21,296 bases of DNA from Verrucomicrobiota bacterium (lineage in GTDB: Bacteria; Verrucomicrobiota; Verrucomicrobiia; Limisphaerales; J093): the NCBI GenBank assembly GCA_016871715.1, contig VHCO01000141.1, forward strand, positions 1 to 21,296, in the 5' to 3' direction. A program made the translations under genes and the position numbers. The stretch's first letter is position 1, and every line of letters starts with the position of its first letter. Shown in pieces: positions 7,401 through 21,102 of the stretch. The notes below the pieces were generated by a model. The model was given only the letters and a program-made list of their open reading frames with translations, was not told the origin of the DNA and did no database searches.

Positions 7401-9098
7401 GACGTCCACCACCCGCCGCACCGCTGCCGCATACTCGACCTCCGCAGCCTCATCCAACACGCGCGTCAACTCGATGAGATCGGACCAGTCGTCCTCGCTG
7501 GTATTGGTGCGCTTGAAGTAGTTCTCCCGGTAAGGAGCCGCATCCTCGCCCTCGTAGTGCAAATCGGCGCCCGGCGCGCGCAGCCGAATCCCGCGGTACA
7601 TGTTCCCCGAGCTGTCCCGGGGATAGGTGCGCGCCGCAAACTCGCTGTTGAGCACCTCCGCGCACACATACAACCCGTAAGAAGGCGAGCCGCTCGTGGC
7701 TAAATTGGCGTTGTTCACCCGCACCTGCACCGGGCGCGCCGAGCCGGCCGGCAGGCCCGCCCGCCGGTACCAGGCGCTGCCCAACAACTGGGCGTGCGTG
7801 TACTGCGTGTTTAAATTGATCGCCGACACCCGCTTCCAGAGCTGGTCGCTCCGGAAACTCACGCGGTAGCTCTGCGGCGACCGCGTCCGACTCCCATTGC
7901 CGCGGTTGCGCACGTCGGCCAGATAGCGCAATTCGCTCCCTTGCCCGTCAACGCTGATGAAGGTGGCGTTCATCTGGGCATGGCTGCGGCTCTGGTCGCT
8001 GGTCGCGTACGGCGCGGGTGGATTGCGCTCGTTGATCTGCCGGAGCTCCGCCAGGTCGGCCCCCTTCAGCACCAGCCGATGGATGGGCAGCGTTCCCGCG
8101 TAAAGAGCGTCATCCACCTGGTAGAGCAAATTCGCCGCCTGCGCCGGTTCGCCGTCCCGCCAGGCTGGCGCCGGGTAAGTCCGCCCCTGGCCCACCCCAT
8201 CCTCCGCCTCGAAGTAGAACTCGACGACCGTATCCTTGGGCGCCGGCGGCAGCCACGCCCCATAGACCCCGTCCGCAGCCGCGCCGTCGCCGTGCTCGCC
8301 ATCGTCCCACATCGGCGCGGTTTCATACTCGGGCGCCTCATCCACCCGGTAGTGCACCCGCACCGTCAGACCCGTACCCGCCTCGTCGAGGACTCGCGCC
8401 GTGACCGCTACCGGATCCGTTGCCTTTGGGACCAAGGGGAAATGTGCCGCCTCGAGAATGAACGGGGCCACGTTGGCGCGCGCGACCGAGTTGGGTTGGC
8501 CCGGCGTGCCGCCGCTCACTTCGCTGGCCGCCCAATTCTGGCCGTACACGTTGGGCAGCGCCGGTTGAATCAACTCGATCGACCGGCCACCGCCGTCGGC
8601 GGCGCTAGCCCAACCCCATCCGCGATGCCCGGCGTCGATCGGCCCCAACTCGCGCCGCGCCCAGTCGCCTTCGTCCGCATATCGAATGGCGTTCACGCGG
8701 TCGCCGCGCGCATCCACCAGCTCGAGCAATTGCCCGCTGTTGCTAAGGATGCCGTCCCAACCACCCACGAAATTCGTCACCGTGGGATGGTTGGTCCGGA
8801 AATTATCGAGATCGGCCGCCACGGCCAAATACTCGCCCGCTGGCAAACTCACGGCGGGGAAAGTGAACCGCACCCCCGTCGTGAACCGCCAACCCGTCAG
8901 ATCCACCGCAGTCGCGCCTGCATTGTAGAGCTCGATGTACTCCTCCCGCGTGTCCTCACTCGCCGGCCGATACATCAACTCGCTGATCAACACCTGCCCC
9001 AACCCAAAGGCCGCCCCCGGACCTAACGCAAACCACCCGAGCAAAACCCAGTACCAGCGCATCCCGCTCCAACCCGACCGCAGCCATTTCGTCCTCAT
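1413..9098 (-). CDS. Giant secreted multidomain protein (~2560 aa): signal peptide, ~7 lamin-tail domains, CotH kinase-like domain, right-handed beta-helix, C-terminal TSP3-like Ca-binding motifs plus beta-sandwich
   Basis: Single uninterrupted minus ORF 1413..9149. The tracked start is TTG at 9149. I prefer ATG at 9096-9098 (MRTKWLRSGWSGMRWYWVLLGWFALGPGAAFG, a signal-peptide-like N-terminus); ATG at 9107 is an alternative. LTD signatures recur about seven times: LISELMY..EYIELYN..DLTGW, LRLNELLA..DLVELYN, LRLNEWLA..DFVELYN, VLLNEVLA..DWVELFN, VRVNEWMA..DWFELYN, VAINEVLT..IELHN, VVLNELMF..FLELRN. The CotH family region is YRVSFRSDQLWKRVSAINLNTQY...GLYVCAEV...WMLYFALETLADN...PYDLDTIFNQGD. The beta-helix-like region is NDTIDFTGG...VHDNVFTRTGDDFLDLDG...VEGNVF...IVRNLFYDS. 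The C-terminal motifs are DRDADGLWDDWE and DPDRDGLTNLQE. The stop (TGA) is at 1413-1415. Confidence 0.8.
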   Translation of the reverse strand: MRTKWLRSGWSGMRWYWVLLGWFALGPGAAFGLGQVLISELMYRPASEDTREEYIELYNAGATAVDLTGWRFTTGVRFTFPAVSLPAGEYLAVAADLDNFRTNHPTVTNFVGGWDGILSNSGQLLELVDARGDRVNAIRYADEGDWARRELGPIDAGHRGWGWASAADGGGRSIELIQPALPNVYGQNWAASEVSGGTPGQPNSVARANVAPFILEAAHFPLVPKATDPVAVTARVLDEAGTGLTVRVHYRVDEAPEYETAPMWDDGEHGDGAAADGVYGAWLPPAPKDTVVEFYFEAEDGVGQGRTYPAPAWRDGEPAQAANLLYQVDDALYAGTLPIHRLVLKGADLAELRQINERNPPAPYATSDQSRSHAQMNATFISVDGQGSELRYLADVRNRGNGSRTRSPQSYRVSFRSDQLWKRVSAINLNTQYTHAQLLGSAWYRRAGLPAGSARPVQVRVNNANLATSGSPSYGLYVCAEVLNSEFAARTYPRDSSGNMYRGIRLRAPGADLHYEGEDAAPYRENYFKRTNTSEDDWSDLIELTRVLDEAAEVEYAAAVRRVVDVEAWMLYFALETLADNKETNLANGNNGDGEGDDFFLYRGVLDPRFRVLPYDLDTIFNQGDTRGRVEDSLFRMAANPVLDRLVKHPEFAPVYYATLVRLLETVGAPDTFEPLVDQTLRGLVPETVLESIKDFAGLRRAWVASQIPRGLAIQPGLTLVSGYPYTTNAQVTLTGMADVVETRAVRVNGQPAAWSAWEGTWTAADVALWPGINRVLVQSFDVAGRERERASADVWRDTGASTEVSGPLAEDTTWSAPQGPYYVTSPLTVPAGRTLTLEPGVTVFLAAGANLTVNGRLAALGTDGRRIRFATLPGSGGAWGGVLVAGATAQGWFGNVDFSGAGMGGYNVRVDDGTLLLEQCTFADTTAQYVDLRAASFHIRHCVFPTLLDEELIHGSGLPAAGYGIVEGCWFGETSGYNDTIDFTGGQRPGAILQVHDNVFTRTGDDFLDLDGTDAHVEGNVFLKTVQTVSPVDTSAAISGGKSGSRTSRITIVRNLFYDSEHMAMAKEGNFYLLENNTAVGLPKAGFLLDEPGRRSDGVTPAQGGVFRGNILWHTPTNFLAAYVNDPEWGTLDLTSEGNVLSGPDAAVRSTNDWRVDPRLVLTNQVTWQNIREAYRLRPGSPAQGTGPNGIDRGALVPAGASVAGEPPPTTWRTNALLTVAGPGVTHYRYSVWTAAPPVTPGAPVTEFARTALSEEQPVSVPLAIEGLTNGVYRVEVIGKNSAGVWQVSSLAPPGEAEAPVGQPQPVPATLSAVWTVDTGYRALRLNELLAKNDQAVLHGEDYPDLVELYNDSPVAHDLSGLGLTTAPDRPHRFTFPPGTILAAEGYLVVYADADLAAPGLHLGFALNQSGEGLYLFDRADRGGALLDAVVFGRQLPDLSVGRVGRAGQWALTRPTFGAANVSQPTGEASRLRLNEWLASTRAVFRDDFVELYNSDTLPVSLGGLYLTDNPIGDPAQHRIAPLSYIAPGGFALFQADGRPDRGADHLGFSLAAEEGLLALLGPELEAIDWVVYGPQRPDVSQGRTPNGGLQFALFSQPTPGGVNPGTIGGGGTSTSTFELVSMTNSWNYWQTGDPGAGWSSAAFDDGAWPAGPALLYVESSSLPAPKNTPLDLGQITYYFRTRFDFPTNTAGVKLAARAVVDDGVVLYLNGVEVWRLGLPSGEITDSTRASRTVGNATYEGPVDLPTEALRRGENLLAAEVHQTSSGSSDIVFGLALEASLTRTNFNLETIPVLLNEVLAGNATLTNRAGATPDWVELFNPSPDPVDLDDCSLTDDLASPRRWVFPAGTVLPAGGWLVIECDRRQPVSAANTGFGLNAQGGGVYLFDRLAAGGGLLDSLNYGLQASDFAIGRTPDGFGSWGLVLPTPGAANLEAALGDVAAVRVNEWMASPATGEDWFELYNPNAQPVALGGLFLTDDLNRRNQFEIRPLSFLATGPRGLVRFWADGAPESGADHVGFKLAAAGESIGLFSADGIRIDGVTFGAQQAGVSEGRLPDGGSGPVVRFPVTATPGASNYLPLEGVAINEVLTHAQPPLERAIELHNPTNDDQPVGGWFLSDSPANFQKYRLPAEAAVPAHGFLVVYESEWETGPGALAPLALDPYRSGEVWLAAADLAGRLTGRRAHAAFDAAALGTSMGRVPTSAGADFVALSRQTFGRDWPATVEEFRTGRGAPNASPHLGPVVLNELMFHPPSGAGSGGADNIVDEFLELRNVTADAVLLYDPTSPTNTWRLRGGLSFDFPGNLTLARGGCLLLVNFSPGANPGQLTDFRSRYAVPDGVTILGPYAGKLGDADDTIELLQPGPPLPASGEVPYLLVERVRYTNRAPWPAGASGTGRSLQRRAGSAYGNEPTNWRVADPTAGRDNDGSTGSEDRDADGLWDDWELLYFGSLDRPEGAPAADPDRDGLTNLQEQAAGTHPLDWASGLRILSAGFDGGRFGLLFRTAPSRSYLIQYRDSLTDGVWRNLVELPIQAATDEVRVTDPTAGVARARYYRVVTSGAP

Positions 9099-9174
9099 GT
9101 CTGTCATTTCCAAGCCGTCAAGTGTCTCGCAGGTTTCCTGCCAACACAACTAACCGTCTTCTAGCCGCCGCCCG

Positions 9175-9506: not shown

Positions 9507-9974
9507 ATGAAACTGATGCGATTCAATCAGCCGGACCTCTGGGCGGTGTCGCCCATCGAGCGTATGAGCAGTCTGCGCGACCAAATCAACCGCCTCTTCG
9601 AGGCGCCCTTCGGTGAACTGGCGCGCGCGGGTGAGTTCTTCAACGGTTGGGCGCCTGCCCTGGACCTACGCGAGGACAAAGAGAATCTCGTGGCCTCGAT
9701 CGAACTGCCAGGACTTAAGAAGGAGCAAATCGATGTGTCGGTGCACGACGGCGTCCTGAGCGTTGCCGGCGAGCGGGCCGACGAGAGCTCGAACCAAGAG
9801 GCGACCTGCTATCGAACCGAGCGTTTCTACGGCCGCTTCCATCGGACGCTGACGCTGCCCAAGCCGGTGAAGGTGGACGCCATCAAGGCAACTTACAAAG
9901 ACGGCATCCTGACCGTCACGTTGCCGAAGACCGAGGAAGCCAAACCGAAACAGATCACCGTCAACGTCGGCTAA
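9507..9974 (+). CDS. Small heat-shock protein, Hsp20/alpha-crystallin family (155 aa)
   Basis: The alpha-crystallin domain is present: WAPALDLREDKENLVASIELPGLKKEQIDVSVHDGVLSVAGER......GRFHRTLTLPKPVKVDAIKATYKDGILTVTLPK (the G-x-L-x-V/I-x-L-P-K C-terminal hallmark). There is a good RBS, aaaggaaca, before the ATG. Stop TAA is at 9972-9974. Confidence 0.9.
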   Translation: MKLMRFNQPDLWAVSPIERMSSLRDQINRLFEAPFGELARAGEFFNGWAPALDLREDKENLVASIELPGLKKEQIDVSVHDGVLSVAGERADESSNQEATCYRTERFYGRFHRTLTLPKPVKVDAIKATYKDGILTVTLPKTEEAKPKQITVNVG

Positions 9975-10041: not shown

Positions 10042-10419
10042 ATGAACTCATTGACCAAAACCGACCGCAGCCGCGAGGCGGCTGCGATGCCCGAAACCCC
10101 GTACGTCACGCCCGCAGTCGACATCGCCGAAACCAAGGAAGCTTACCTTCTGCGCGCGGACATGCCCGGCGTGACCAAGAACGGTCTCGAGATCCAACTC
10201 GAGGCCAACGAACTCACGATTGTGGGCCACCGCGCTGACGCCCGGGAAGGGAGCTACTTGCACCGCGAGTCCAGCACCCACGATTTCCGGCGGACCTTCG
10301 TCATCGACCCGACCATCGATGCGTCGCGCATCTCCGCCAAGATCGAGCAGGGCGTTCTGACGGTGCACCTGCCCAAGACCGATCAGGTTAAACCGCGTCG
10401 GATCAACGTGACCGAGTGA
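10042..10419 (+). CDS. Small heat-shock protein, Hsp20/alpha-crystallin family (125 aa), second tandem copy
   Basis: AVDIAETKEAYLLRADMPGVTKNGLEIQLEANELTIVGHRA......FRRTFVIDPTIDASRISAKIEQGVLTVHLPKT shows the same domain pattern. The RBS gaggaaa lies 6 nt before ATG 10042. Stop TGA is at 10417-10419. Confidence 0.85.
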   Translation: MNSLTKTDRSREAAAMPETPYVTPAVDIAETKEAYLLRADMPGVTKNGLEIQLEANELTIVGHRADAREGSYLHRESSTHDFRRTFVIDPTIDASRISAKIEQGVLTVHLPKTDQVKPRRINVTE

Positions 10420-10422
10420 CTT

Positions 10423-10505
10423 GCTGCTGGGCCCTCCTGGGCCGTCCCAGCAGCGTGCCGTTCCACGCCACCCCTCTCCTTCGCTCGTCGAGGGAGAGGG
10501 TTTTT
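10423..10505 (+). terminator. Two tandem hairpins ending in GC-stem + TTTTT: a Rho-independent terminator of the hsp20 operon, possibly bidirectional since it also serves convergent hypC
   Basis: Hairpin 1 is gctgctggg (10423-10431) / cccagcagc (10446-10454). Hairpin 2 is ccctctcc...ctcg t cgag ggagaggg (10472-10500), immediately followed by ttttt (10501-10505). It is located between the stop of hsp20-2 (10419) and the stop of minus-strand hypC (10517). Confidence 0.6.
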
Positions 10506-10516
10506 CCCGCCTCCTC

Positions 10517-10816
10517 TCACTCTGCCGCACCCAAGCTCGCCCGGTCCGCAGATCGGGGCGCAGGCTGGGAACCCTCCGCGAGTTCCGCTAAGCCCTCCAT
10601 CTCCCGCAGGTACTCGAAGACTTGGTTGGCTTCGGCTTCGTCCACCAGGCTCAAGGCACAGCCGACGTGAACCACGGCGTAGTCGCCCACCTTCGCCTCC
10701 GGCACATAGGCCATACTCACTTCCTTGACCACCCCGCCAAAGCTCACCCGGCCGGTGCGAGTCATCGGATCGTCACCGCTCAGGCTGAGAATCTTGCCGG
10801 GAATCGCCAAGCACAT
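10517..10816 (-). CDS. hypC: Hydrogenase maturation factor HypC/HupF family (99 aa)
   Basis: The minus ORF contains the defining N-terminus MCLAIPGKI (Met-Cys start; ATG at 10814-10816, and the tracked ORF start 10852 is upstream of it). The conserved core is GRVSFGGVVKEVSMAYVPEAKVGDYAVVHVGCALSLVDEAEANQVFEYL, comparable to E. coli HypC ...[28 protein letters not shown]. There is a C-terminal extension of ~20 aa beyond typical HypC. Confidence 0.8.
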   Translation of the reverse strand: MCLAIPGKILSLSGDDPMTRTGRVSFGGVVKEVSMAYVPEAKVGDYAVVHVGCALSLVDEAEANQVFEYLREMEGLAELAEGSQPAPRSADRASLGAAE

Positions 10817-11145
10817 AGGACGGCAGAATAAAGAACCCAGCGCGGTTGGCAAGCGGAGCGAACATGGAGGCAGCGATTTCGGAAGCTGGTCGGGATCTCT
10901 GGGCGAAACGGTTCACGAGGGCTGCAGCAAGCTGTGACGCCGGGCCTCCGAAGGCCGTGGCGCCCAGCTCGAGGAACAACGCCGCCACCGAACGCTGCGG
11001 GCAATTACGGTTCGATTTTGCGGGTGGACAACTTCGATTGCACGGCGGCGGTTGCGAGCCCGTTTACGAGGAAATGCTGGCGATCCCGATCCTCACGAAA
11101 GAGGTCCAGTGTGGCGGGACGCGGTCTTGCGCTCCGAACGTGTGG

Positions 11146-11370
11146 CTACGCGGGGACCGGGGCAGTCTTGCGGCGGGTGCCGGGGCGGATCGAAACCACA
11201 TGCATCGGGTCAATGATGTCCAGCAGTCCTTTTGCGTCCTCGATCACCACATTGTGCCGGCCTACCAGGACGAATTCCGGGTGCGGCACGCGGAACTCCT
11301 TGCCGTCGGAAGTGCGGATAATCATGGGGCGCTGCCCTATCAGTTGCTGCCGAATCAATTCCCGATTCAT
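11146..11370 (-). CDS. Hypothetical small protein (74 aa), no family recognised
   Basis: ATG at 11368-11370. GC3 is strongly biased like the genuine genes, and the amino-acid composition is balanced and non-low-complexity (MNRELIRQQLIGQRPMIIRTSDGKEFRVPHPEFVLVGRHNVVIEDAKGLLDIIDPMHVVSIRPG). The overlapping plus-strand ORFs are R/P/A-rich junk. Confidence 0.4.
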   Translation of the reverse strand: MNRELIRQQLIGQRPMIIRTSDGKEFRVPHPEFVLVGRHNVVIEDAKGLLDIIDPMHVVSIRPGTRRKTAPVPA

Positions 11371-11633
11371 GCCGCATGTATGGCCCGAAAGCGGGCTTGG
11401 GTCAAGCCCCGTGCCTGTCCAAACATCAGCGATTTGGGAAGGTCGAAAGGTCGCAACGCAAGGAGTATGAACTCGCCAGGATTTTGTAGCTGCACTTCCA
11501 CAGGCTGGCCTGTTAGCCTGCGCCGTGATGCCGCCTCCCGATACCAGGATCGACCCGCCCGAACCGACCCGGTGGCTGCGCCTGGGCCATCGCGGCGGGG
11601 CCGGCGGGCGGAAAGCCGTACCTTGCGCCGCCT

Positions 11634-12356
11634 ATGCCTGAGGCCATCTCGATCGTGCTCGCCGAGGCCGTGCGCCTAGTGAACTTGCCGCTGACGCTGC
11701 TGCTGATCCTTGTGGTCCTGTACTGGCTGCTGGTGATCTTGGGCGGAGTGGACGCGGCGGTGCATGGCGGGCACATCGAGCTGGACGCCGGCCATGTCGA
11801 GGGCGGCCACGGCGACCTGGGCCACGCGGAACCCGGCGCCGCCGGCCATGGTCATGGCGAAGGCCTCGAGGGGGCAGGCGCGCATGGGTGGGGGTGGGTC
11901 CTAAGTTTCCTGCACCTCGGCCAAGTGCCCGCGACCGCCGTGTTCAGTGTGCTCACGTTGTGCCTGTGGACGTTTTCGTTGCTCGGCAATTTCCACTTCA
12001 ACGCCGGCTACCACCTCGGGTTGGCGGCGGCGTTGCTCCTACCCAATCTCCTGGTGAGCGTCGTGCTCACCCACTTCCTGGTGTTGCCGCTCAAACCGCT
12101 GTTTCGCATGCTGAACAAAGACTACGACGCCGCCGCCCCCATCATCGGCCAGATCTGTGAGGTCGCCACGGGCCACGCCGATGCGCACTTCGGCCAGGCG
12201 AATATCTCGACCCGAGGCGCCCCGATCACGATCCAGGTGCGCGCCGCCCCGGGCGAAGTGCTGCGCCGGGGGCAAAAGGCTATGGTGGTTGGGCGCGACG
12301 AACAACACGGCTTTTACGAAATCCGCAAATACGACGAACCTCAACTGGAGCAATAG
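11634..12356 (+). CDS. yqiJ: YqiJ-like (DUF1449) membrane protein with C-terminal NfeD-type OB-fold, flotillin partner (240 aa), with an expanded His/Gly-rich loop
   Basis: The architecture matches E. coli YqiJ. TM1 is LPLTLLLILVVLYWLLVILGG, followed by a His-rich loop (E. coli ALDAHLDHYDSIATGHISH; here VDAAVHGGHIELDAGHVEGGHGDLGHAEPGAAGHGHGE). TM2 FLHLGQVPATAVFSVLTLCLW corresponds to E. coli YLNIGRLPALVVLCLLAGF. After TM3 comes a C-terminal beta-barrel, GQICEVATGHA...GEVLRRGQKAMVVGRDEQHGFYEIRKY. The gene ends 3 nt before the flotillin ATG. Confidence 0.8.
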   Translation: MPEAISIVLAEAVRLVNLPLTLLLILVVLYWLLVILGGVDAAVHGGHIELDAGHVEGGHGDLGHAEPGAAGHGHGEGLEGAGAHGWGWVLSFLHLGQVPATAVFSVLTLCLWTFSLLGNFHFNAGYHLGLAAALLLPNLLVSVVLTHFLVLPLKPLFRMLNKDYDAAAPIIGQICEVATGHADAHFGQANISTRGAPITIQVRAAPGEVLRRGQKAMVVGRDEQHGFYEIRKYDEPQLEQ

Positions 12357-12359
12357 CAT

Positions 12360-14393
12360 ATGGTGGAAGGCATCTTGACCATCGTCACCGTGATCGGGGT
12401 TATTATCCTGGTCGGGTTCCTGATCCTGCTGGTCCGCTGCTACCGCAAGGTCGAACAAGGCCAAGCCCTCGTCCGCAACGGCGTCGGCGGCACCAAGGTC
12501 TCCTTCTCCGGCATGATCGTGCTCCCCGTCCTCCACCGGGCCGAGTACATGAATATCTCGGTCCACCGCGTCGAGATCGACCGCCGCGGTGCGGTGGGAT
12601 TGATCTGCCGCGATAACCTGCGCGCGGACATCACCGTGGCGTTCTTCGTGCGGGTCAATAAGACCGTCGAGGACGTGCTCAAGGTGGCCCAGACCATCGG
12701 GTGCGCTCGCGCCTCGAGCCGCGAGGCCATTGTCGAGCTGTTCGACGCCAAGTTCTCCGAGGGCCTCAAGACCGTCGGGCGCCAGTTCGACTTCGTCGAG
12801 CTCTACAATTCCCGCGAGAAATTCCGCGATGAGATCATCAAGGTGATCGGGACCGACCTCAACGGGTATGTGCTCGAGGACGCGGCCATCGATTACCTCG
12901 AACAAACCAGCCTCGAACACCTCAACCCGGACAACATCCTCGACTCCGAGGGCATCAAGAAGATCACCGAACTGACCGCCACACAGGCCAAGCTCGCCAA
13001 CAACATTTCCCGCGACAAAGAGAAAGTCATCACCCGCCAAAATGTCGAGGCCCAAGAGACCATCCTCGAGCTCAACCGCCAGTTGGCTGAAGCCACCGAG
13101 AAGCAAAAGCGCGAGGTCGCGTCCGTCAAGGCCCGCGAAGAAGCCGAAGCCCGCAAGATCGAGCACGAACAACGGCTCCGCGCCGAGCAGGCACGCATCG
13201 CGACGGACGAGGAGATCGCCGTGGCGGACGAAAACAAGAATCGCCAGATTGTCGTCGCCCAAAAGAACCGCGAACGCACCGCCGCCGTCGAGACCGAGCG
13301 TGTCGAGAAAGACCGCTTGCTCGAAGTCACCGAGCGCGAACGCATCGTCGCCCTGGCCAACATCGAGAAGAACAAGGCCATCGAAATCGAACAGAAGAAG
13401 ATCCAAGACGTCATCCGTGAGCGCGTCATGGTCCAGAAGACCGTCGTGGCCGAGCAGGAACGCATCAAGGACACCGAAGCCTTCGCGACCGCTGACCGCC
13501 AAAAACGCGTGGTGGTCACCGCGGCGGAAATGAAAGCCGAAGAAGCCCTCGTCCAGGAAATCAAGGCGGCGGAGGCGGTCAAGAAATCCACCGAACTCCA
13601 GGCGGAGGCGGAGAAATACCGCGTCGAGCGCACGGCGGAGGCCGCGCGAAACGCGGCGCAGGTCCACGCGGAACAGGTTGTCCTCGAGGCCGACGCAGAG
13701 TTCAAGGCGGCCGAGCGCCAAGCCGCGGCCAAAAAGACCCTCGCCGAAGGCGTCACGGCCGAGACGGCGGCGCCGGGACTTGGCGAGGCGCAGGTGCTCG
13801 AGGCCCGGGCCGGCGCCCTGCAAGAGCAGGGCGAAGCCGAAGCCAACGTTATGCGCCTCAAGTTCCACAGTGAGGCCGAGGGGATCAAGGAGAAGGCCGA
13901 GGCGATGAAGATCTTCGACGGCGTCGGCCGCGACCACGAGGAGTTCAAGCTCCGCCTCAACAAGGAACGCGACGTGGACCTGGCCCTCATCCACATCCAG
14001 AAGGACATCGCCGAGCAACAAGCGCGGGTCCTGGGCGAAGCGCTCAAGAGCGCCAAAGTCGACATCGTGGGCGGCGACGCGGCGTTCTTCGACAAGATCG
14101 TGGGCGCCATTTCCGCCGGGAAATCCGTCGACCGCATGTTGGCGAACAGCCAGGCGCTCACCGACCTCAAGGCCGCCTTGTTCGACGGCGATCCCGAACA
14201 GTTTCGCAACCAAGTGCAACGCTGGGTCGGGCGGTTCGGCCTCTCGACCGAGGACGTCAAGAACCTGACGATCGCCGCGGCGCTGACGAAGATGATCGCC
14301 TTGAGCCAGGACGGGCGCGCCAAGCGCGCATTGCAGAGCTTGCTCGACCTGGGCAGCCAACTCGGCTTGAACCAGCAGCCGCTCCATGAGTGA
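12360..14393 (+). CDS. yqiK: Flotillin / SPFH (band-7) domain protein, YqiK-type (677 aa)
   Basis: There is an N-terminal TM (ILTIVTVIGVIILVGFLILLV) followed by an SPFH domain closely parallel to E. coli YqiK. The pairs are LVRNGVGGTKVSFSGMIVLPVLH vs FVRTGLGGQKVVMSGGAIVMPIFH, RADITVAFFVRVNKTVEDV vs RVDVVVAFFVRVKPSVEGI, and LEQTSLEHLNPDNILDSEGIKKIT vs FNQTSKEHFNPNNAFDAEGLTKLT. A long E/A/R/K-rich coiled-coil flotillin region follows. RBS ggag is 9 nt upstream. Confidence 0.9.
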   Translation: MVEGILTIVTVIGVIILVGFLILLVRCYRKVEQGQALVRNGVGGTKVSFSGMIVLPVLHRAEYMNISVHRVEIDRRGAVGLICRDNLRADITVAFFVRVNKTVEDVLKVAQTIGCARASSREAIVELFDAKFSEGLKTVGRQFDFVELYNSREKFRDEIIKVIGTDLNGYVLEDAAIDYLEQTSLEHLNPDNILDSEGIKKITELTATQAKLANNISRDKEKVITRQNVEAQETILELNRQLAEATEKQKREVASVKAREEAEARKIEHEQRLRAEQARIATDEEIAVADENKNRQIVVAQKNRERTAAVETERVEKDRLLEVTERERIVALANIEKNKAIEIEQKKIQDVIRERVMVQKTVVAEQERIKDTEAFATADRQKRVVVTAAEMKAEEALVQEIKAAEAVKKSTELQAEAEKYRVERTAEAARNAAQVHAEQVVLEADAEFKAAERQAAAKKTLAEGVTAETAAPGLGEAQVLEARAGALQEQGEAEANVMRLKFHSEAEGIKEKAEAMKIFDGVGRDHEEFKLRLNKERDVDLALIHIQKDIAEQQARVLGEALKSAKVDIVGGDAAFFDKIVGAISAGKSVDRMLANSQALTDLKAALFDGDPEQFRNQVQRWVGRFGLSTEDVKNLTIAAALTKMIALSQDGRAKRALQSLLDLGSQLGLNQQPLHE

Positions 14394-17300
14394 AGCACCC
14401 ACGGCCGCCCCGGCGCCGGCCGCCCCCGCCACCCTCGAGAGCGGCACCTACGAGATCCTCCGGGACCGCCTCCAGGCCCGCGCCCGGGAACTGCAGGAGC
14501 GCCTCGGCCAATTGGACACCGCCCGGCGCGCGGTGTTTGGCTCGCTCGGCTTCGCCCTGGTGGGCACGGAGTGGGTGGTCACCGCGCACAACTGCATGCC
14601 GAGCGACCTGGTGGCCATCGGAGGCAACCGGTTCCTCTTTGGCTACAACGTCTTCATCGGACTGAAGTCGCAAACCGACGTGGCCGACGTCTTCGCCGCT
14701 TACGAGAAACACGAGCACAGCTTCCGCCCCACCGCACTCACCTGGCTGGCCGACGAACGGTTCCAGGCCGATTTCCACAGCCTCTACCGCTACTACCGCC
14801 AAACTCAGTTCGCCAAGTTCTCGATCCTCGGCCCGCATCTGTTCATGGTCTTCCGCGTGGGCCCGCAGATCTCCGACATCAAGACCTTCAAGTGGCTGCT
14901 CACACCCGACGGACTCGCCTACCAAGGCAACCGCAGCGACCACGAATTCCGCTACCCTCCGCAACACGAGTTCGAGTGGACCCGCACCCACCGCGACCTC
15001 CATCGCCAGGGGCCCCATCCGCACATCTCGATCGCCGACCGGCTTTTCGTCGAGACCATCGGCGGCGACCTCACCATCAAGATCGAGGATAACACCGCCA
15101 CCGGCGCGGGCATCTACGCGGAGCCGGTCGCCCACCGCGATCAGACCTTGGACGACGCGGAGATCTTCTACGCCATCCTGGGCCATCTGATCCTGCTCAA
15201 GATCCGGCCCTACCAGGAAGATCACTACCGCTATTTCGTCTACAACGAAAAGCTCCGCCAGGTCCGCCGGATCGACACCCTCGCCGACGCCTGCGTCTTG
15301 CTGCCCAACCATCACGGGATCATCTTTTCGAACGGGTACTACCTGCAACTGGGCGAGTGCAAACAGTACCCGGGCACGCTCACCGACATGACGTTCGAGC
15401 GGCGCGTCGCCTCTCCCAACGGCGAAGATCACCTCTACGTGTTCTACAATCGCCAGGACGGCCTCTACGTCCTGATGTCCTACAACGTCATCGCCCAACA
15501 GGTCGAAGCCCCGGTCCTCTGCAACGGTTTCTCCCTCTTTGCCAACGGCGAACTCGCCCTCTTCAAAGCCCAGGCCGAACCCCAAAAACATCACGTCCTC
15601 CAAATCTGGCAAACGCCGTATCGCACCGGCGAATCGCCCCTCCCCGAACAGCAGGATTCCTACCTGTTCAAGATCGGCAACCCCGCCATCGTCCGGTGCA
15701 TGGCCGAGTGTCACGAACTGCTCAGCCTCCTGCGCAAGGACGATACTTACGCCGACCTCTACGTGGACCTGGTCAAGCGCGCCGACGACGTTCTGAACGC
15801 CTACTTCTGGCTCGACCACCCGGAGGCCTGCGGCCTCCGGGACGTGCTCCAGGCCATCCACACCGCCGCCGCCGGCGCCGTCGACGAATTCGATAAGGTC
15901 GCCCGCCTGCGCCACCACGCCCGCTCGGAACTCGCCCGCGTCAGTCAGAACGCCCGCGCCCTGATCGAGTCTGTCCAGGGGGCGCTCTACGAAGAGATCC
16001 TCGAGTACGTCGAGCACCTCGCCCGACTGCGCGCCCAGCGCGGCGAATTGATCGCCCTAAAGGAGGTCCGCTACGTCGACGCGGCACAGGTCGAATCCCT
16101 CGAGGCGGAGGTGGCGGATCAGGCCGAGGCGCTGGCGCACCGGTGCGTCGAGTTCCTCCTCCAGCCGGATGCCCTGGCACCCTACCACGCCCAGGCAGTC
16201 GCCCACCGCGCCGCCTGCGACGGCCTCGAGAAAGTCGCCGAGGTCAAGCAGGTCGAGGCCCAAGTCGCGCAATCCGCGACGAACCTCGAGCTGCTGATCG
16301 AAATCGTCAGCAACTTGAAGATCGAGGACGCCACCCAGACCACCCGTATCGTCGAGAACATCTCCGGCGTCTACGCCGAGCTGAACCAAGTCCAAGCCCG
16401 GCTGAAACGGCGTCGCCAAGAACTCCAGCAGGTGGAAGGCGCCGCCCAGTTTGCCGCCCAGATGCGGCTGCTCGACCAAAGCGCCGTCAACTACCTCGAG
16501 GTCTGCGCCGCCCCCGAGCGCTGCGACGAGTACCTCAACAAGCTCCTCGTCCACCTGACCGAACTCGAAGGACGCTTCGCCGATTTCGACGCGTTCCAGG
16601 CGCCCCTGGCCGAGAAACGCGAAGAGCTCTACGCCGCCTTCGAGGGCCGCAAAGTCGCCTTGGTCGCCGCCCGCAGCCAGCGCGCCCAGAACCTGATGAC
16701 CGCTGCCGAGCGCATCCTCAAAGGCATCGCCCAGCGCGCCCAGCAGTTCGATGCGCTCCAGGACATTCATGGCTTCTTTGCCGCCGACCTGATGGTCGAG
16801 CGCGTGCGCGAACTGGTGCGGCAACTCCTCGAACTGGACGACCCGGTCCGCGCCGGCAACCTGCAGACCCGCCTCAAGACCCTGCGCGAAGAGGCCGTGC
16901 GCCAGCTCAAAGACCGCCAAGACCTCTTCGTCGATGGGCGCAACCTCATCCAATTCGGCCGCCACAAGTTCACCGTTAACCATCAACCGATCGAGATCAC
17001 CTTGGTTCGGCGCGACGACGACCTGTTCTACCACCTCACCGGGACCCAGTTCTTCGAGCGCGTCGAAGATGCCGAACTGCTCGCCACCCGGTCGGTCTGG
17101 ACCCAGGAACTCGTCTCGGAGAACCCCGAGGTCTATCGCGCGGAGTACCTCGCCTATCAACTCCTCCGGACTCTCGATCGGCCCGGAGCCGATCCCAGTC
17201 TCGCCGCCCTGGCGGAGGGGAGCCTCGAAGCCTGCCAAGGACAGGTCCAGCACTTCATGGCCCCGCGCTACGCGGAAGGCTACGTCAAAGGCGTGCACGA

Positions 17301-19665
17301 CCTCGACGCGGCCCAGTTGCTGCAGGCCCTGGCGCGCCTGCACCGCTCGGTCGGCCTGCTGCGTTACTCCCCGCGCACCCGCGCTTGCGCGACCGTCTTT
17401 TGGCAAGTCCATCGCCAGCGGGATCCGCTCTTGGCGGCACGCCTCGAGGGCTTTCGCCTCCGCCACGAACTCTTCGCCCCGGGCCCGGCCCCGCCGGATA
17501 CGATGGGCGAGCTGCAGCAGCGGATCGAGGCCTTCTGCCAAGAAACCCGGCTCTTCCCGGCCTCCATCGCAGAAGCCGCCGCGGAGTACCTCTTTCAGGA
17601 ACTCACCTCTCGATCGCGCTCGGTCATCAGCCAACCCGCCGCCGACCTGGTCACCGCGCTCGAAAGTCACTTGCGCAACCGCCAAGCCCATGAAGCCTTT
17701 GCCGCGGCGCTCGCACGCGTCGCCCACGATCCAGCCAGCGCCTTCCCGGTGCTACGCGACTTGCTGGCCGGGTACCTGGCCACGCAAACCGTCAACGCGC
17801 CGCCGGATTACCTCGACGAATCCGCCTCGCTCCTGCTCCGCCGAGCCTACGATCCGCAAGCGGTCGTCGCCGCGGTGGTCGACACGCGGCTCGAGGGCCT
17901 GCTGGGCACACACCCCGTCATCCAAAATGGGGTCTACCACCTCAAGTTCCACCAGTTCATCGAGAAACTGCGGCGTTACGAGCAGGACGTCGTGCCCGCT
18001 TTCAACCGGTGCCACGCGCGCAAGACCGCCCTCCTGGAACAGAAGCGACGCGCTCTCCGCCTGGCCGAGTTCCAACCTCACGTCTTGACCGCGTTCGTGC
18101 GGAACCGGCTCATTGGCCAGGTCTACTTGCCGCTGATCGGCGACAACCTGGCGAAACAGATCGGTGTGGCGGGCGAACAGACGCGCACCGACCGCATGGG
18201 GTTGCTGCTCCTGATCTCCCCGCCGGGCTATGGCAAAACCACCCTCATGGAGTACCTCGCCCATCGCCTCGGCATCACCTTCATCAAAATCAACGGCCCG
18301 GCCCTGGGCGGCCGCGTGACCTCGCTCGATCCTGCCGAAGCCCCCAACGCCAGCGCGCGCGAAGAACTCGAGAAGGCCAACCTCGCCTTCGAGATGGGCG
18401 ACAACATCATGATTTACCTCGATGACATCCAGCATTGTCATCCCGAGCTCCTGCAAAAGTTCATCTCCCTCTGCGACGCGCAGCGCAAGATCGAAGGCGT
18501 CTACCGAGGCCAAGCCCGCACCTACGACCTGCGCGGCAAGAAAGTGGCCATGGTCATGGCCGGCAATCCCTACACCGAAAGCGGCTCGAAGTTCCAAATC
18601 CCCGATATGCTCGCCAACCGCGCCGACACGTACAACCTGGGCGACATCGTCGCCCACGCCGCCGACGCCTTCCGCGCGAGCTACCTCGAAAACGCCCTCA
18701 CCTCGAACCCCGTCCTCAGCCCACTGAGCAGCCGCCACACCGCCGACCTCTTCCCCCTCCTCGAACTCGCCGCCGGCGGCTCGCGCGAGAACGTCCAATT
18801 CGAGGGCAACTACTCCGTCGAGGAAATCAACGAGTTCGTGGCCGTCCTGCGCATCCTGCTCCGGCTGCGCGACGCCGTCCTGCGGGTCAACCAGGAGTAC
18901 ATCCGCTCCGCCGCTCAGGCCGATGCCTACCGCACCGAGCCGCCGTTTCGCCTCCAGGGGTCCTACCGCAACATGAATCGCCTCGCCGAACGGGTCGTGC
19001 CCATCATGAACGACGACGAGGTCACCGCCCTGCTCCATGACCACTACCAAAACGAGGCGCAAACCCTGGCCAGCGGCGCGGAGGCGAATCTCCTCAAGTT
19101 CTCCGAGCTCATGGGCACCCTGACCGCCGAGGCTGCCCAGCGCTGGCAGGACATCAAACGCACCTTCCAACGCAACCTGCTCCTGCAAACCACCGACGCC
19201 CAAGACCCCGTCGGTCGCATCGCCGGTCAGTTGGCCACCTTCGCCGAGGGCCTCGAGGCGATCCGCAAGGTGCTAGCGACCGGACTCTCCGAGCGCCGGC
19301 CGCCCCCCGACACAGCCGCCACGGAACTGGCCGCCCTCCCCCAAAGCCTCGAAGCCATCCGTGCCACCCTCGCTGAAGGACTGATCCGCGCCGCCGAACC
19401 GCCTCCGCCCCCAGCGCCTAGCCCGGATCCACTCCTCGATCTGGTCCAAAACCGGTTGGCTGACCTCAACCAGGCCCTCCGATCCATCCAAGCCGCGCTA
19501 GCGGCGAGCGCCAAGCCAACCGAGCCAAGCCCGGCCACCTTCCGCTTGATTAACCCCGCCAGCAAAGCCGATTTCGAGATCACCAACGTCAGCCAGGACA
19601 CCCTCAACAAGATCTGGTCCTTGGTTGACGAGGAACGCCAACGCCGACCGTCCCCCGACAAGTAG
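14386..19665 (+). CDS. Giant (1759 aa) multidomain protein with a single MoxR/AAA_5-class AAA+ ATPase module near the C-terminal third, a large aromatic-rich N-terminal domain and ~700 aa of predicted helix; coupled to flotillin
   Basis: The start ATG overlaps the flotillin TGA (ATGAGTGA at 14386-14393). Walker A is LLLISPPGYGKTTLMEYLAHRLGITFIKINGPAL (nt ~18210-18300). Walker-B-like is IMIYLDDIQHCHPELLQKFISL (18421-18438 = DDIQHC). A sensor-1-like motif VAMVMAGNP and IPDMLANRADTYNLGD together parallel the MoxR ...LADEINRAppktqsaLL...vlATQNP...LPEAQLDRF layout. The N-terminal ~370 aa is aromatic-rich, possibly beta-rich (WVVTAHNC...FGYNVFIGL...YRYFVYNEKL...LYVFYNRQDGLYVLMSYNV). The central region is long and helical/coiled-coil. 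Codon bias is consistent throughout and there are no internal stops. Confidence 0.8.
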   Translation: MSEAPTAAPAPAAPATLESGTYEILRDRLQARARELQERLGQLDTARRAVFGSLGFALVGTEWVVTAHNCMPSDLVAIGGNRFLFGYNVFIGLKSQTDVADVFAAYEKHEHSFRPTALTWLADERFQADFHSLYRYYRQTQFAKFSILGPHLFMVFRVGPQISDIKTFKWLLTPDGLAYQGNRSDHEFRYPPQHEFEWTRTHRDLHRQGPHPHISIADRLFVETIGGDLTIKIEDNTATGAGIYAEPVAHRDQTLDDAEIFYAILGHLILLKIRPYQEDHYRYFVYNEKLRQVRRIDTLADACVLLPNHHGIIFSNGYYLQLGECKQYPGTLTDMTFERRVASPNGEDHLYVFYNRQDGLYVLMSYNVIAQQVEAPVLCNGFSLFANGELALFKAQAEPQKHHVLQIWQTPYRTGESPLPEQQDSYLFKIGNPAIVRCMAECHELLSLLRKDDTYADLYVDLVKRADDVLNAYFWLDHPEACGLRDVLQAIHTAAAGAVDEFDKVARLRHHARSELARVSQNARALIESVQGALYEEILEYVEHLARLRAQRGELIALKEVRYVDAAQVESLEAEVADQAEALAHRCVEFLLQPDALAPYHAQAVAHRAACDGLEKVAEVKQVEAQVAQSATNLELLIEIVSNLKIEDATQTTRIVENISGVYAELNQVQARLKRRRQELQQVEGAAQFAAQMRLLDQSAVNYLEVCAAPERCDEYLNKLLVHLTELEGRFADFDAFQAPLAEKREELYAAFEGRKVALVAARSQRAQNLMTAAERILKGIAQRAQQFDALQDIHGFFAADLMVERVRELVRQLLELDDPVRAGNLQTRLKTLREEAVRQLKDRQDLFVDGRNLIQFGRHKFTVNHQPIEITLVRRDDDLFYHLTGTQFFERVEDAELLATRSVWTQELVSENPEVYRAEYLAYQLLRTLDRPGADPSLAALAEGSLEACQGQVQHFMAPRYAEGYVKGVHDLDAAQLLQALARLHRSVGLLRYSPRTRACATVFWQVHRQRDPLLAARLEGFRLRHELFAPGPAPPDTMGELQQRIEAFCQETRLFPASIAEAAAEYLFQELTSRSRSVISQPAADLVTALESHLRNRQAHEAFAAALARVAHDPASAFPVLRDLLAGYLATQTVNAPPDYLDESASLLLRRAYDPQAVVAAVVDTRLEGLLGTHPVIQNGVYHLKFHQFIEKLRRYEQDVVPAFNRCHARKTALLEQKRRALRLAEFQPHVLTAFVRNRLIGQVYLPLIGDNLAKQIGVAGEQTRTDRMGLLLLISPPGYGKTTLMEYLAHRLGITFIKINGPALGGRVTSLDPAEAPNASAREELEKANLAFEMGDNIMIYLDDIQHCHPELLQKFISLCDAQRKIEGVYRGQARTYDLRGKKVAMVMAGNPYTESGSKFQIPDMLANRADTYNLGDIVAHAADAFRASYLENALTSNPVLSPLSSRHTADLFPLLELAAGGSRENVQFEGNYSVEEINEFVAVLRILLRLRDAVLRVNQEYIRSAAQADAYRTEPPFRLQGSYRNMNRLAERVVPIMNDDEVTALLHDHYQNEAQTLASGAEANLLKFSELMGTLTAEAAQRWQDIKRTFQRNLLLQTTDAQDPVGRIAGQLATFAEGLEAIRKVLATGLSERRPPPDTAATELAALPQSLEAIRATLAEGLIRAAEPPPPPAPSPDPLLDLVQNRLADLNQALRSIQAALAASAKPTEPSPATFRLINPASKADFEITNVSQDTLNKIWSLVDEERQRRPSPDK

Positions 19666-19851: not shown

Positions 19852-19878
19852 CACCTCAGTGACTCATGAGTAAGAGAG

Positions 19879-21102
19879 TCACCCGTTGGCTCCCCCGCAG
19901 GGAACTCCAGCGCGCAAGTCTGCCACACACTCGACATGCTGCGTCTGCGGAAACATATCCACCGGCGTCAACCGGTGTAGCCTATAAAGACCCTCCCCAC
20001 AGAGCGCACGCAAATCTCGCGCTTGCGTCGCCGGATGGCACGAGATGTACAGAATCTGCCGCGGCCGGACCGCGCGGAATTGATCGAGCGCGGACGCGGC
20101 GCAACCCACCCGCGGCGGGTCTAGAATCACCGCCATCCGGTCCGCTCGGAACTTGCCGAGGGCACCCGCAAGACACTCCTCGGCGGTGCCCGCCACAAAC
20201 TCGCCATTCGAGAGGCCTCGGGCGGCCGCGTTTTGGCGCGCGGCGGCCAGGGCCTGCCGATCGTATTCCAGGCCCACAAAGGACTCGACTTCCCTCGCCA
20301 ACTCGATCCCGAAATACCCGACGCCGCAATACACATCCACCAGGTGCCGCGCACCTCCATCCCGCAAGGCCGCCCGCACCACCTCGAGCAGGCTCGGCAG
20401 CGCAAAGAAGTTGTTCTGGAAAAACGAATCCGGCGGCACCGCCCAACCCTCCGGTTGAATGCGCAGAGCAACCTTGAGCCCGCCGCGGGGCGGCGGCTGA
20501 GCGCGGACCCGGGCCAGTTGTCGGTTGAGCAGCGGCTCGGCAATCGCGCACTCCTCGACATCGACCACGAGACGACTGTCGTGCCGCAGAAAACCGATTG
20601 CCAACCGTTGCTCCGGCTTGTGCCACTGGCTGCGCACCAGCAACCGGTTGCGGTACCCGTACTCGGCTGGGCTCGGCACCACCGGCTGCACCGCCGCCGC
20701 CGGGAACCCGCCCACCCGCTCCATGAGATCGCTCACTTGCCTGTGCTTGAGCCGGAGCTGCTCGCGATAAGCGACGTGCTGGTACTGGCACCCACCGCAG
20801 CCGCCAAAGTAAGGGCACCGCGGCGTCACCCGCTCCGCCGACCCCTCGAGCACCCGCACCAACCGGGCCCGGGCAAAGTGCCGTTTGACCTCCGTGACCT
20901 CGAGTTCCACCAACTCCCCCGGCAACACAAACGGAACGAAGACAACAAACTCGTTAACCCGCGCCACGCCTTCGCCCCCGAACGCAACGTCCGTAACCCG
21001 TGCGGCGAGTCGGTCCCCCCGCGCCAGCGGCGGCTCCGGCGCAAAGCCGCCGTCCTGCGCAGCCGGGTCCGACCCAGCCGTCCCGTGAACATCCTGACCC
21101 AT
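19879..21102 (-). CDS. rlmD: 23S rRNA (uracil-C5)-methyltransferase, RlmD/RumA family (TRAM domain + 4Fe-4S cluster + SAM-dependent MTase), 407 aa
   Basis: The TRAM-like N-terminus is VTDVAFGGEGVARVNEFVVFVPFVLPGELVELEVT. The Fe-S cysteine motif CPYFGGCGGCQYQH corresponds to E. coli RumA CRHYGKCGGCQQQH. MTase motifs present are FFQNN, VDVYCGVGYFG, ILDPPRVG, and ILYISCHPATQARD...PVDMFPQTQHVECVA. ATG is at 21100-21102 and TGA at 19879-19881. Confidence 0.85.
   Translation of the reverse strand: MGQDVHGTAGSDPAAQDGGFAPEPPLARGDRLAARVTDVAFGGEGVARVNEFVVFVPFVLPGELVELEVTEVKRHFARARLVRVLEGSAERVTPRCPYFGGCGGCQYQHVAYREQLRLKHRQVSDLMERVGGFPAAAVQPVVPSPAEYGYRNRLLVRSQWHKPEQRLAIGFLRHDSRLVVDVEECAIAEPLLNRQLARVRAQPPPRGGLKVALRIQPEGWAVPPDSFFQNNFFALPSLLEVVRAALRDGGARHLVDVYCGVGYFGIELAREVESFVGLEYDRQALAAARQNAAARGLSNGEFVAGTAEECLAGALGKFRADRMAVILDPPRVGCAASALDQFRAVRPRQILYISCHPATQARDLRALCGEGLYRLHRLTPVDMFPQTQHVECVADLRAGVPCGGANG

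Follow-up and report, generated by a model that had tools for sequence, protein, structure and literature searches.

A giant AAA+ ATPase with an Asp-Asp Walker B motif in a YqiJ/YqiK-type flotillin operon of a Verrucomicrobiota bacterium

Membrane scaffolds of the SPFH family are coupled, genetically or physically, to AAA+ machines both in bacteria (HflK/C with FtsH) and in mitochondria (prohibitin with the m-AAA protease), and PspA and Vipp1 are bacterial members of the ESCRT-III superfamily. The function of bacterial flotillins, and the means by which polymers of PspA and other ESCRT-III-like proteins are remodelled without Vps4, are open questions. Comparative genomics (Ravi et al. 2024, mSystems 9:e00847-23, PMC11237479; preprint 2020) has described operons that join CesT/Tir and PspA genes with genes for a flotillin, an AAA+ ATPase and a YqiJ/YuaF-type transmembrane protein, with the same gene order in Dokdonia (their Table S3) and with abbreviated operons, lacking PspA, more widely distributed. 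An ATP-dependent or chaperone-like assembly beneath the membrane was proposed there from genomic context, and Walker motifs, structure models and quantification of linkage were not part of that work; neither Hinderhofer 2009 nor a 2026 Pseudomonas aeruginosa SPFH paper mentions such an ATPase. Here we analyse a cassette of identical architecture and with the same operon partners in contig VHCO01000141.1 of a Verrucomicrobiota bacterium (assembly GCA_016871715.1), centred on a giant protein with DUF3686, DUF7902 and AAA+ domains (hereafter, the ATPase). The window, by which we mean the whole 21,296-nucleotide (nt) stretch of DNA that was analysed, corresponds to the published abbreviated version of the operon, as neither a PspA nor a CesT gene was found within it.

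Both cassette and architecture were already known, from comparative genomics (the 2020 preprint and the 2024 paper) and from Pfam, and the ATPase adds one more typical member to a widespread family of giant bacterial ATPases that is catalogued and has been noted in the literature; the value of the ATPase lies in a testable hypothesis on flotillin and PspA function rather than in the novelty of the object. We favour, with a probability of roughly 55%, the reading that the ATPase works in the cytoplasm, coupled to flotillin, as an AAA+ remodeller or switch that hydrolyses ATP slowly and under regulation, a reading shaped by analogy with better-described systems. Because the family is highly conserved, genetically locked to one flotillin clade and recurrently encoded beside PspA, it is the obvious candidate energy source for the flotillin/PspA system. 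To the published description we add an invariant Asp-Asp (DD) Walker B motif in an otherwise intact nucleotide site, a MoxR/dynein-like placement of the AAA+ module, a confident model of DUF3686, a quantified and reciprocal flotillin linkage, and tractable carriers (for example, Pseudomonas fluorescens pQBR103), which together make the hypothesis of flotillin coupling directly testable.

Linkage of the ATPase to flotillin and PspA genes

Judged from gene spacing, the ATPase is encoded by the third gene of a tightly packed predicted operon (yqiJ-like gene, yqiK-type flotillin gene, ATPase gene; Table 1), in which the stop codon of the yqiJ-like gene is separated from the flotillin ATG by a gap of 3 nt and the ATPase start codon overlaps the flotillin stop within ATGAGTGA (spacing −8 nt). 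The product of the first gene has multiple predicted transmembrane segments and a C-terminal OB-like region; a profile built from 37 orthologues of it matched Escherichia coli YqiJ over the full length (hhalign probability 96.6%, expect value (E) = 5 × 10−10), and 26 of the 37 matched Pfam YqiJ_N. The flotillin shares 33% identity with E. coli YqiK across 434 amino acids (aa; E = 3 × 10−52) and has a Band_7 domain that was detectable only when the N-terminal 210 aa were scanned alone (E = 3 × 10−10). Its C-terminal extension (approximately aa 500–650; positions 13860–14300), which is largely unaligned to E. coli YqiK, shows 60–70% column identity in cassette orthologues and could be where the ATPase docks.

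Linkage was assessed across 80 genome loci found by means of the ATPase, each count using those loci with enough flanking sequence; the loci came from Planctomycetota, Verrucomicrobiota, Bacteroidota, Myxococcota, Desulfobacterota, Acidobacteriota, Sumerlaeota, Omnitrophota, Lentisphaerota, Kiritimatiellota and Cloacimonadota. A flotillin gene lay immediately 5′ of the ATPase gene, on the same strand, at 65 of 67 loci, and a YqiJ-like gene lay upstream of the flotillin gene at 56 of 64. In the reciprocal test, which started from metagenome loci found by means of the flotillin (at least 44% identity, with at least 500 nt of downstream DNA), the ATPase gene followed immediately downstream at approximately 30 of 34 loci; among metagenome loci with distant SPFH matches, the corresponding count was 0 of 6. 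The operon linkage between ATPase and flotillin is thus near-obligate and reciprocal across many phyla.

Apart from PspA/IM30, no other conserved neighbour of the cassette was found in the 80 loci. At 15 loci the cassette was directly preceded, or in some cases followed, by PspA/IM30 genes (for example, the order in Marinoscillum, whose ATPase is 47% identical, is CesT_Tir, PspA, YqiJ, flotillin, ATPase; locus L066). An AAA+ ATPase encoded beside genes for ESCRT-III-like PspA recalls Vps4 and ESCRT-III, and by that analogy the adjacency suggests an ATP-driven remodeller of a membrane polymer. Unlike Vps4, however, the ATPase has no MIT domain and is not a classical-clade AAA protein, and its linkage to PspA is facultative, whereas that to flotillin is near-obligate.

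More distant members of the family (36–44% identity) occur on plasmid pQBR103 of P. fluorescens SBW25 and in Deinococcus, Streptomyces, Proteus, Vibrio and Halomonas. On pQBR103 and on a Deinococcus plasmid (approximately 37–38% identity), the order is a gene for a small protein, an SPFH-annotated or similar-sized gene, and the ATPase gene, and on pQBR103 a PspA gene of the same strand precedes the triad by approximately 4 kilobases (kb). The pQBR103 locus (L154; positions 85452–100927 of the plasmid) holds a same-strand run of PspA/IM30, rhomboid protease, DUF2491, DUF350, DUF1190 and glutathionylspermidine-synthase-family genes ahead of the cassette, a run that we take to resemble the E. coli yjf cluster. 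Two loci, L028 and L031, are the sole genome loci at which flotillin and YqiJ genes are missing upstream of the ATPase gene. In L028 the surroundings consist of a CHASE2-adenylate cyclase gene and genes for ATP synthase, and in L031 of STAND NTPase and TPR genes.

Family, architecture and predicted structure

The first-pass annotation of the window, made from the letters alone, had described the N-terminal domain of the ATPase as unassignable to any family and the overall architecture as fitting no standard annotated family. Neither description survives comparison with Pfam, since aa 35–474 match PF12458 (DUF3686) along the entire profile (positions 1–448 of 448; E = 1.2 × 10−177; 591 bits against a cut-off of 25), followed by DUF7902 and by AAA_5/AAA matches at aa 1274–1399. 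This combination is standard and in print (PMC11237479). All of the best-scoring 120 of at least 4,444 related proteins (E ≤ 1 × 10−10) have DUF3686 and DUF7902, and a called AAA domain is missing from one or two of the 120 at most; their lengths range from 1,667 to 1,895 aa, and several carry names such as ‘DNA repair ATPase’, ‘AAA family ATPase’ or ‘MoxR-like ATPase’ in their source databases. A search with aa 1–500 against 1.84 billion cluster representatives recovered 718 clusters (50% identity) at E ≤ 1 × 10−3 and 249 at E ≤ 1 × 10−30, and full-length matches were 1,550–2,036 aa long, with the domain beginning no more than approximately 40 residues from the N terminus in those listed. By these sequence comparisons, the DUF3686 family appears compact and of a single architecture. 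Identity across phyla is 45–60% over approximately 1,700 aa, the region around DUF7902 (aa 500–839) is conserved across 80 orthologues, and the open reading frame (ORF) is uninterrupted in nearly all of the 80 genome loci.

Some members depart from this pattern. In two metagenome-assembled genomes (a Saprospiraceae and a Bacteroidia genome; L064 and L075), the orthologue has one in-frame stop each within the part corresponding to aa 840–1640, which could reflect a pseudogene or an assembly error. Ankyrin-repeat Pfam domains accompany DUF3686 in some homologues (P0027 and P0056), and one 1711-aa homologue (P0092; 54% identity) belongs to a eukaryotic protein set (eukprot g33011.t1), an occurrence that may be due to contamination or horizontal transfer.

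No NCBIfam model reached its cut-off in a scan of the ATPase, and searches of the PDB with the whole protein, a family profile and a profile of the AAA module matched only approximately 40 residues around the P-loop (p97 D1, Rix7 and RuvB); beyond these residues, sequence searching points to no related solved structure. Structure was approached through AlphaFold models of aa 1–500 and aa 840–1640, each computed from a 44-row alignment. The model of aa 1–500 (predicted local distance difference test score (pLDDT) 88.3, predicted template modelling score (pTM) 0.86) has a long helix (aa 19–51), approximately 27 strands (aa 57–409) and further helices (aa 426–499). The top Foldseek matches of this model were all beta-propellers (Elp1/2, DCAF1, WDR5, CyRPA, Vps11/18 and Ycf48), at E values of 1 × 10−7 to 1 × 10−4 and template modelling scores (TM-scores) of at most 0.41. 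We read DUF3686 as an irregular beta domain of propeller-like form joined to a helical bundle, for which these comparisons gave no close solved homologue.

Several other early claims about the ATPase can be placed on these models. The ORF and every quoted motif string are present in the sequence, including FGYNVFIGL (aa 85–93), YRYFVYNEK (aa 281–289) and LYVFYNRQDGLYVLMSYNV (aa 350–368) in an N-terminal region that is indeed aromatic-rich (13.5% Phe, Trp and Tyr in aa 52–422, compared with 6.7% elsewhere in the protein). The Foldseek comparison that had been proposed for this region gave a propeller-like fold to what had been taken for an unassignable domain and is a catalogued DUF. The approximately 700 aa of helix and coiled coil that were said to follow stand in part: the models, which span aa 1–500 and 840–1640, place helices at aa 426–499 and 918–1150, with a small beta domain (aa 854–892) between them.

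The model of aa 840–1640 (pLDDT 85.1, pTM 0.70) continues from that beta domain through the helical domain, whose conservation is below that of the flanking domains, to the AAA+ core, a lid and long C-terminal helices. It has the alpha/beta P-loop core and the helical lid of the AAA+ superfamily fold, and its closest solved folds are the MoxR proteins CbbQ and NorQ; sequence identity to the MoxR-type, dynein and midasin modules is only 12–14%. The claim of a single AAA+ module holds, in that there is one AAA+ core and one P-loop, SPPGYGKTT being the sole match to [AGS]x4GK[ST] in the 1759-aa protein. The C-terminal tail is Pro/Ala-rich, as had been noted from PPPPAPSPDP (aa 1673–1682), with 17% Ala and 14% Pro over aa 1641–1759, column identities of 0.08–0.26 and gaps of up to 69%, and is predicted to be disordered. 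At its extreme C terminus (approximately aa 1725–1750; positions 19560–19640), the pattern F/LR.ID...DY.IT.VS..TL.KIW is common to the closest homologues, and the conserved terminal motif differs in other members of the family.

The nucleotide site and its Asp-Asp Walker B

Residues of the site were compared in the 120 best database homologues (51–61% identity) and in an independent set of 76 orthologues (one genome per species, many phyla). The family-specific motifs SPPGYGKTT, hhhhDDIQH, MAGNPYTESG and PDMLANRAD are all found in the ATPase and are at least 99% conserved. Where the AAA+ superfamily pattern is hhhhDE, with a catalytic Glu, all orthologues read hhhhDD: the two Walker B positions are Asp in 119 and 120 of the 120 homologues, respectively, and both are Asp in 76 of the 76 orthologues, with the IQH that follows as fixed as the DD itself among the 120 homologues. 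The first-pass annotation had called DD a replacement of DE within a site whose Walker A and sensor-1 motifs were intact, and had asked whether the substitution is kept in orthologues. Each point was borne out: in profile alignment the second Asp faces the Glu that E. coli Lon and RavA carry in Walker B, Walker A and sensor 1 are invariant in all 76 orthologues, and a canonical DE was seen in none of the 76. Given this invariance across homologues and orthologues, the DD is a family trait rather than a strain variant or a sequencing error.

In the same profile alignment the family DD coincides with that of E. coli DnaA, an initiator-clade AAA+ protein with the same hhhhDDIQ form of Walker B (ALLIDDIQFF, compared with IYLDDIQHC in the ATPase). 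DnaA is an ATP/ADP switch in which hydrolysis is slow and externally stimulated, and this precedent fits a switch-like, partner-stimulated hydrolysis in the ATPase as well. From the alignment with Lon, in which MAGNP falls on the sensor-1 Asn and PDMLANRAD on IPAPLLDRM, we take N1394 as the probable sensor-1 residue and R1412 as a candidate arginine finger. Because N1394, R1412 and many of their neighbours are invariant, and because of the DnaA precedent for DD, slow or regulated hydrolysis appears a better reading of the site than a dead one.

Table 1 Coordinates of the cassette genes and of predicted domains and motifs of the ATPase in the window
Feature	Position	Strand	Details
YqiJ/YuaF-type (NfeD-like) membrane protein, 240 aa	11634–12356	+	First cassette gene
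YqiK-type flotillin, 677 aa	12360–14393	+	N-terminal transmembrane segment, SPFH/Band 7, coiled coil, conserved C-terminal extension
Giant DUF3686/DUF7902/AAA+ ATPase	14386–19665	+	1759 aa, uninterrupted ORF
DUF3686 domain (aa 35–474)	14488–15807	+	Pfam PF12458; long N-terminal helix, beta-rich core, C-terminal helices
Irregular beta-propeller-like core (aa 57–409, approximately 27 strands)	14554–15612	+	Predicted, AlphaFold model
DUF7902 (aa 595–679)	16168–16422	+	Pfam PF25472, E = 4 × 10−27, full profile length; inside aa 500–839, presumed helical
Small beta domain (aa 854–892)	16945–17061	+	Predicted, AlphaFold model of aa 840–1640; strands 15–53 in model numbering, pLDDT 74–94
All-helical domain (aa 918–1150), N-terminal to the AAA+ module	17137–17835	+	Predicted, AlphaFold model
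AAA+ alpha/beta core (aa 1274–1417)	18205–18636	+	Beta-hairpin (aa 1368–1381) ahead of sensor 1
Walker A SPPGYGKTT (aa 1278–1286)	18217–18243	+	Invariant in 119–120/120 homologues, 76/76 orthologues
Walker B Asp-Asp (D1346, D1347) in IYLDDIQHC (aa 1343–1351)	18421–18426	+	Invariant
Sensor-1 MAGNP (aa 1391–1395; N1394)	18556–18570	+	Asn in 120/120 homologues, 76/76 orthologues; aligns with Lon sensor-1 Asn
PDMLANRAD, candidate arginine finger R1412	18601–18627	+	Arg in 119/120 homologues, 76/76 orthologues
Variable Ala/Pro-rich tail (aa 1641–1759)	19306–19662	+	Ends in short conserved motif DFEITNVSQDTLNKIW

Possible roles of the ATPase

As a flotillin-coupled remodeller or switch, the ATPase would use its AAA+ module to form a ring or other oligomer on the cytoplasmic face of the membrane, and the propeller and coiled coil would serve as an arm that docks onto the flotillin/YqiJ scaffold or onto clients. 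The second Walker B Asp would act as the catalytic carboxylate, as in DnaA, with slow and regulated ATP turnover, and by this turnover membrane complexes associated with flotillin and PspA would be assembled, taken apart or remodelled, in parallel to FtsH with HflK/C and Vps4 with ESCRT-III. Like the HflK/C–FtsH and prohibitin/m-AAA pairs, the cassette links an SPFH-family scaffold to an AAA+ protein, a link that in the cassette is read from the genes; it differs from HflK/C–FtsH in that the ATPase has neither a protease domain nor a transmembrane segment and belongs to another AAA+ clade, and in that its SPFH partner is a YqiK-type flotillin instead of HflK/C. A more specific version, which we hold only tentatively and consider rather doubtful as a whole, is that the giant DD-type AAA+ protein might be the missing ATP-driven part of the YqiJ/YqiK flotillin system, a ring docked by its propeller/coiled-coil arm that would hydrolyse ATP slowly to assemble or disassemble flotillin/PspA membrane-repair structures or to load clients into them. 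If true, the family would be a bacterial counterpart of FtsH–HflK/C or Vps4–ESCRT-III, built from a MoxR/dynein-like module.

Several observations pull in the other direction from flotillin-coupled remodelling. The partner gene is not adjacent at 2 of the 67 genome loci (L028 and L031) and at approximately 4 of the 34 metagenome loci, and a literature search found DUF3686, PF12458 and DUF7902 named in no paper. Because the biochemical role of bacterial flotillin is unsettled, remodelling of flotillin complexes is an analogy and not a deduction. The beta2-alpha2 loop (NGPAxGHxVTSLDP), as read from the sequence, has no aromatic pore-loop motif, which makes a classical threading unfoldase unlikely, and the change from Glu to Asp is compatible with very low turnover.

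The last two of these observations are shared by the strongest competitor of flotillin-coupled remodelling, in which the DD module binds ATP essentially without hydrolysing it and the ATPase is a nucleotide-gated scaffold or switch with no motor function. This is the view of the first-pass annotation, which had suggested a switch-type ATPase that binds ATP but hydrolyses it slowly or not at all. The presence of Asp in place of the catalytic Glu in every orthologue, the missing aromatic pore loop and the behaviour of DnaA, the sole aligned hhhhDDIQ precedent, are all consistent with such a protein. However, N1394, the candidate finger R1412 and many other site residues are invariant across phyla, whereas degenerate AAA+ modules usually lose such residues, and Asp is able to act as a catalytic carboxylate; we therefore consider a non-hydrolysing scaffold unlikely, while giving it serious weight.

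That the cassette is an anti-phage or conflict system, with the ATPase as sensor or effector, seems improbable to us. It would account for a large NTPase with repeat domains, for the occurrence on some megaplasmids (among them pQBR103 and others from Deinococcus and Streptomyces) and for the STAND NTPase near the ATPase gene in L031. Yet matches of the cassette proteins to PADLOC-DB v2 were at noise level only (E ≥ 0.0014), 50,697 phage records yielded 0 matches, conservation across phyla is very high, and the three-gene core is fixed and carries no variable effector, with housekeeping or stress genes as neighbours.

Still less probable is the role of an ordinary MoxR chaperone, paired with a VWA-domain protein for cofactor insertion or the maturation of a specific enzyme, even though the best structural matches (CbbQ and NorQ), the Pfam AAA_5 match and the name ‘MoxR-like ATPase’ in some databases all lead in that direction. 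The ATPase does share its Pfam AAA_5 match and closest fold with MoxR-type proteins (CbbQ, NorQ and RavA) and with dynein and midasin modules. It differs from the MoxR type in a Walker B that reads DD instead of DE, in a conserved neighbourhood that lacks a VWA gene and in its size (1,759 aa with unique, family-specific N-terminal domains, approximately six times a stand-alone MoxR protein of approximately 300–500 aa); its profile match to E. coli RavA is poor (probability 16%), and its model has no clear helix-2 beta-hairpin insert when set against the MoxR-type, dynein and midasin modules.

Hardly credible, finally, is a role in DNA repair as an SbcC/Rad50/SMC-type ATPase, a reading that takes its cue from NCBI and Pfam labels (‘DNA repair ATPase’ and, on PF12458, ‘ATPase involved in DNA repair’) and from a very weak PADLOC match of the helical aa 502–874 to the SMC-like LmuB (E = 0.0014), given that both Walker motifs, at a distance of 60 residues, fall inside a single C-terminal AAA+ domain (aa 1278–1347) rather than standing at opposite ends of a long coiled coil as in Rad50/SMC proteins (N-terminal Walker A; C-terminal Walker B and signature motif), that the fold is AAA+ and no NCBIfam model reaches its cut-off, that neither a nuclease nor a DNA-binding domain was found in the Pfam scan, that the conserved neighbours are membrane proteins with no SbcD-like gene among them, and that a literature search for ‘DNA repair ATPase’ with flotillin returned zero papers, so that the name is unsupported by context, fold or literature.

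Other genes and signals in the window

A second giant ORF (1413–9149, minus strand; 2578 aa) encodes six Lamin Tail Domains (E = 1 × 10−69) and a CotH kinase domain (E = 3 × 10−24) and is probably a large secreted or surface protein. Between it and the cassette lie tandem HSP20/alpha-crystallin genes on the plus strand (9507–9974 and 10042–10419; E = 1 × 10−23 and 2 × 10−20), followed by a terminator-like hairpin (10472–10500; 12-bp stem and T run); this pair is a transcription unit separate from the flotillin cassette. A minus-strand ORF at 10517–10852, with MCLAIPGKILSL...VHVGCALSLVDEAEA, resembles a hydrogenase maturation chaperone of the HypC/HybG type, with an internal Met as its likely true start, and the overlapping plus-strand ORF at 10846–11679 (277 aa, Arg/Cys-rich) looks spurious. 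The gap of 1.1 kb that precedes the cassette contains another minus-strand ORF (11146–11370; 74 aa; MNRELIRQQLIGQRPMIIRTSDGKEFRVPHPEF...). The HSP20 genes, the ORFs at 10846–11679 and 19866–20477 and the TRAM-methyltransferase gene were considered as cassette partners and rejected, as none is kept beside the family in the 80 loci. A scan for sigma-54 promoters gave matches that were not in excess, and an Rfam scan gave zero matches. Flanking the region, both on the minus strand, are a TRAM and tRNA(U5)-methyltransferase-family gene (19879–21102) and a gene for a PQQ/BamB-like beta-propeller protein (4–1311).

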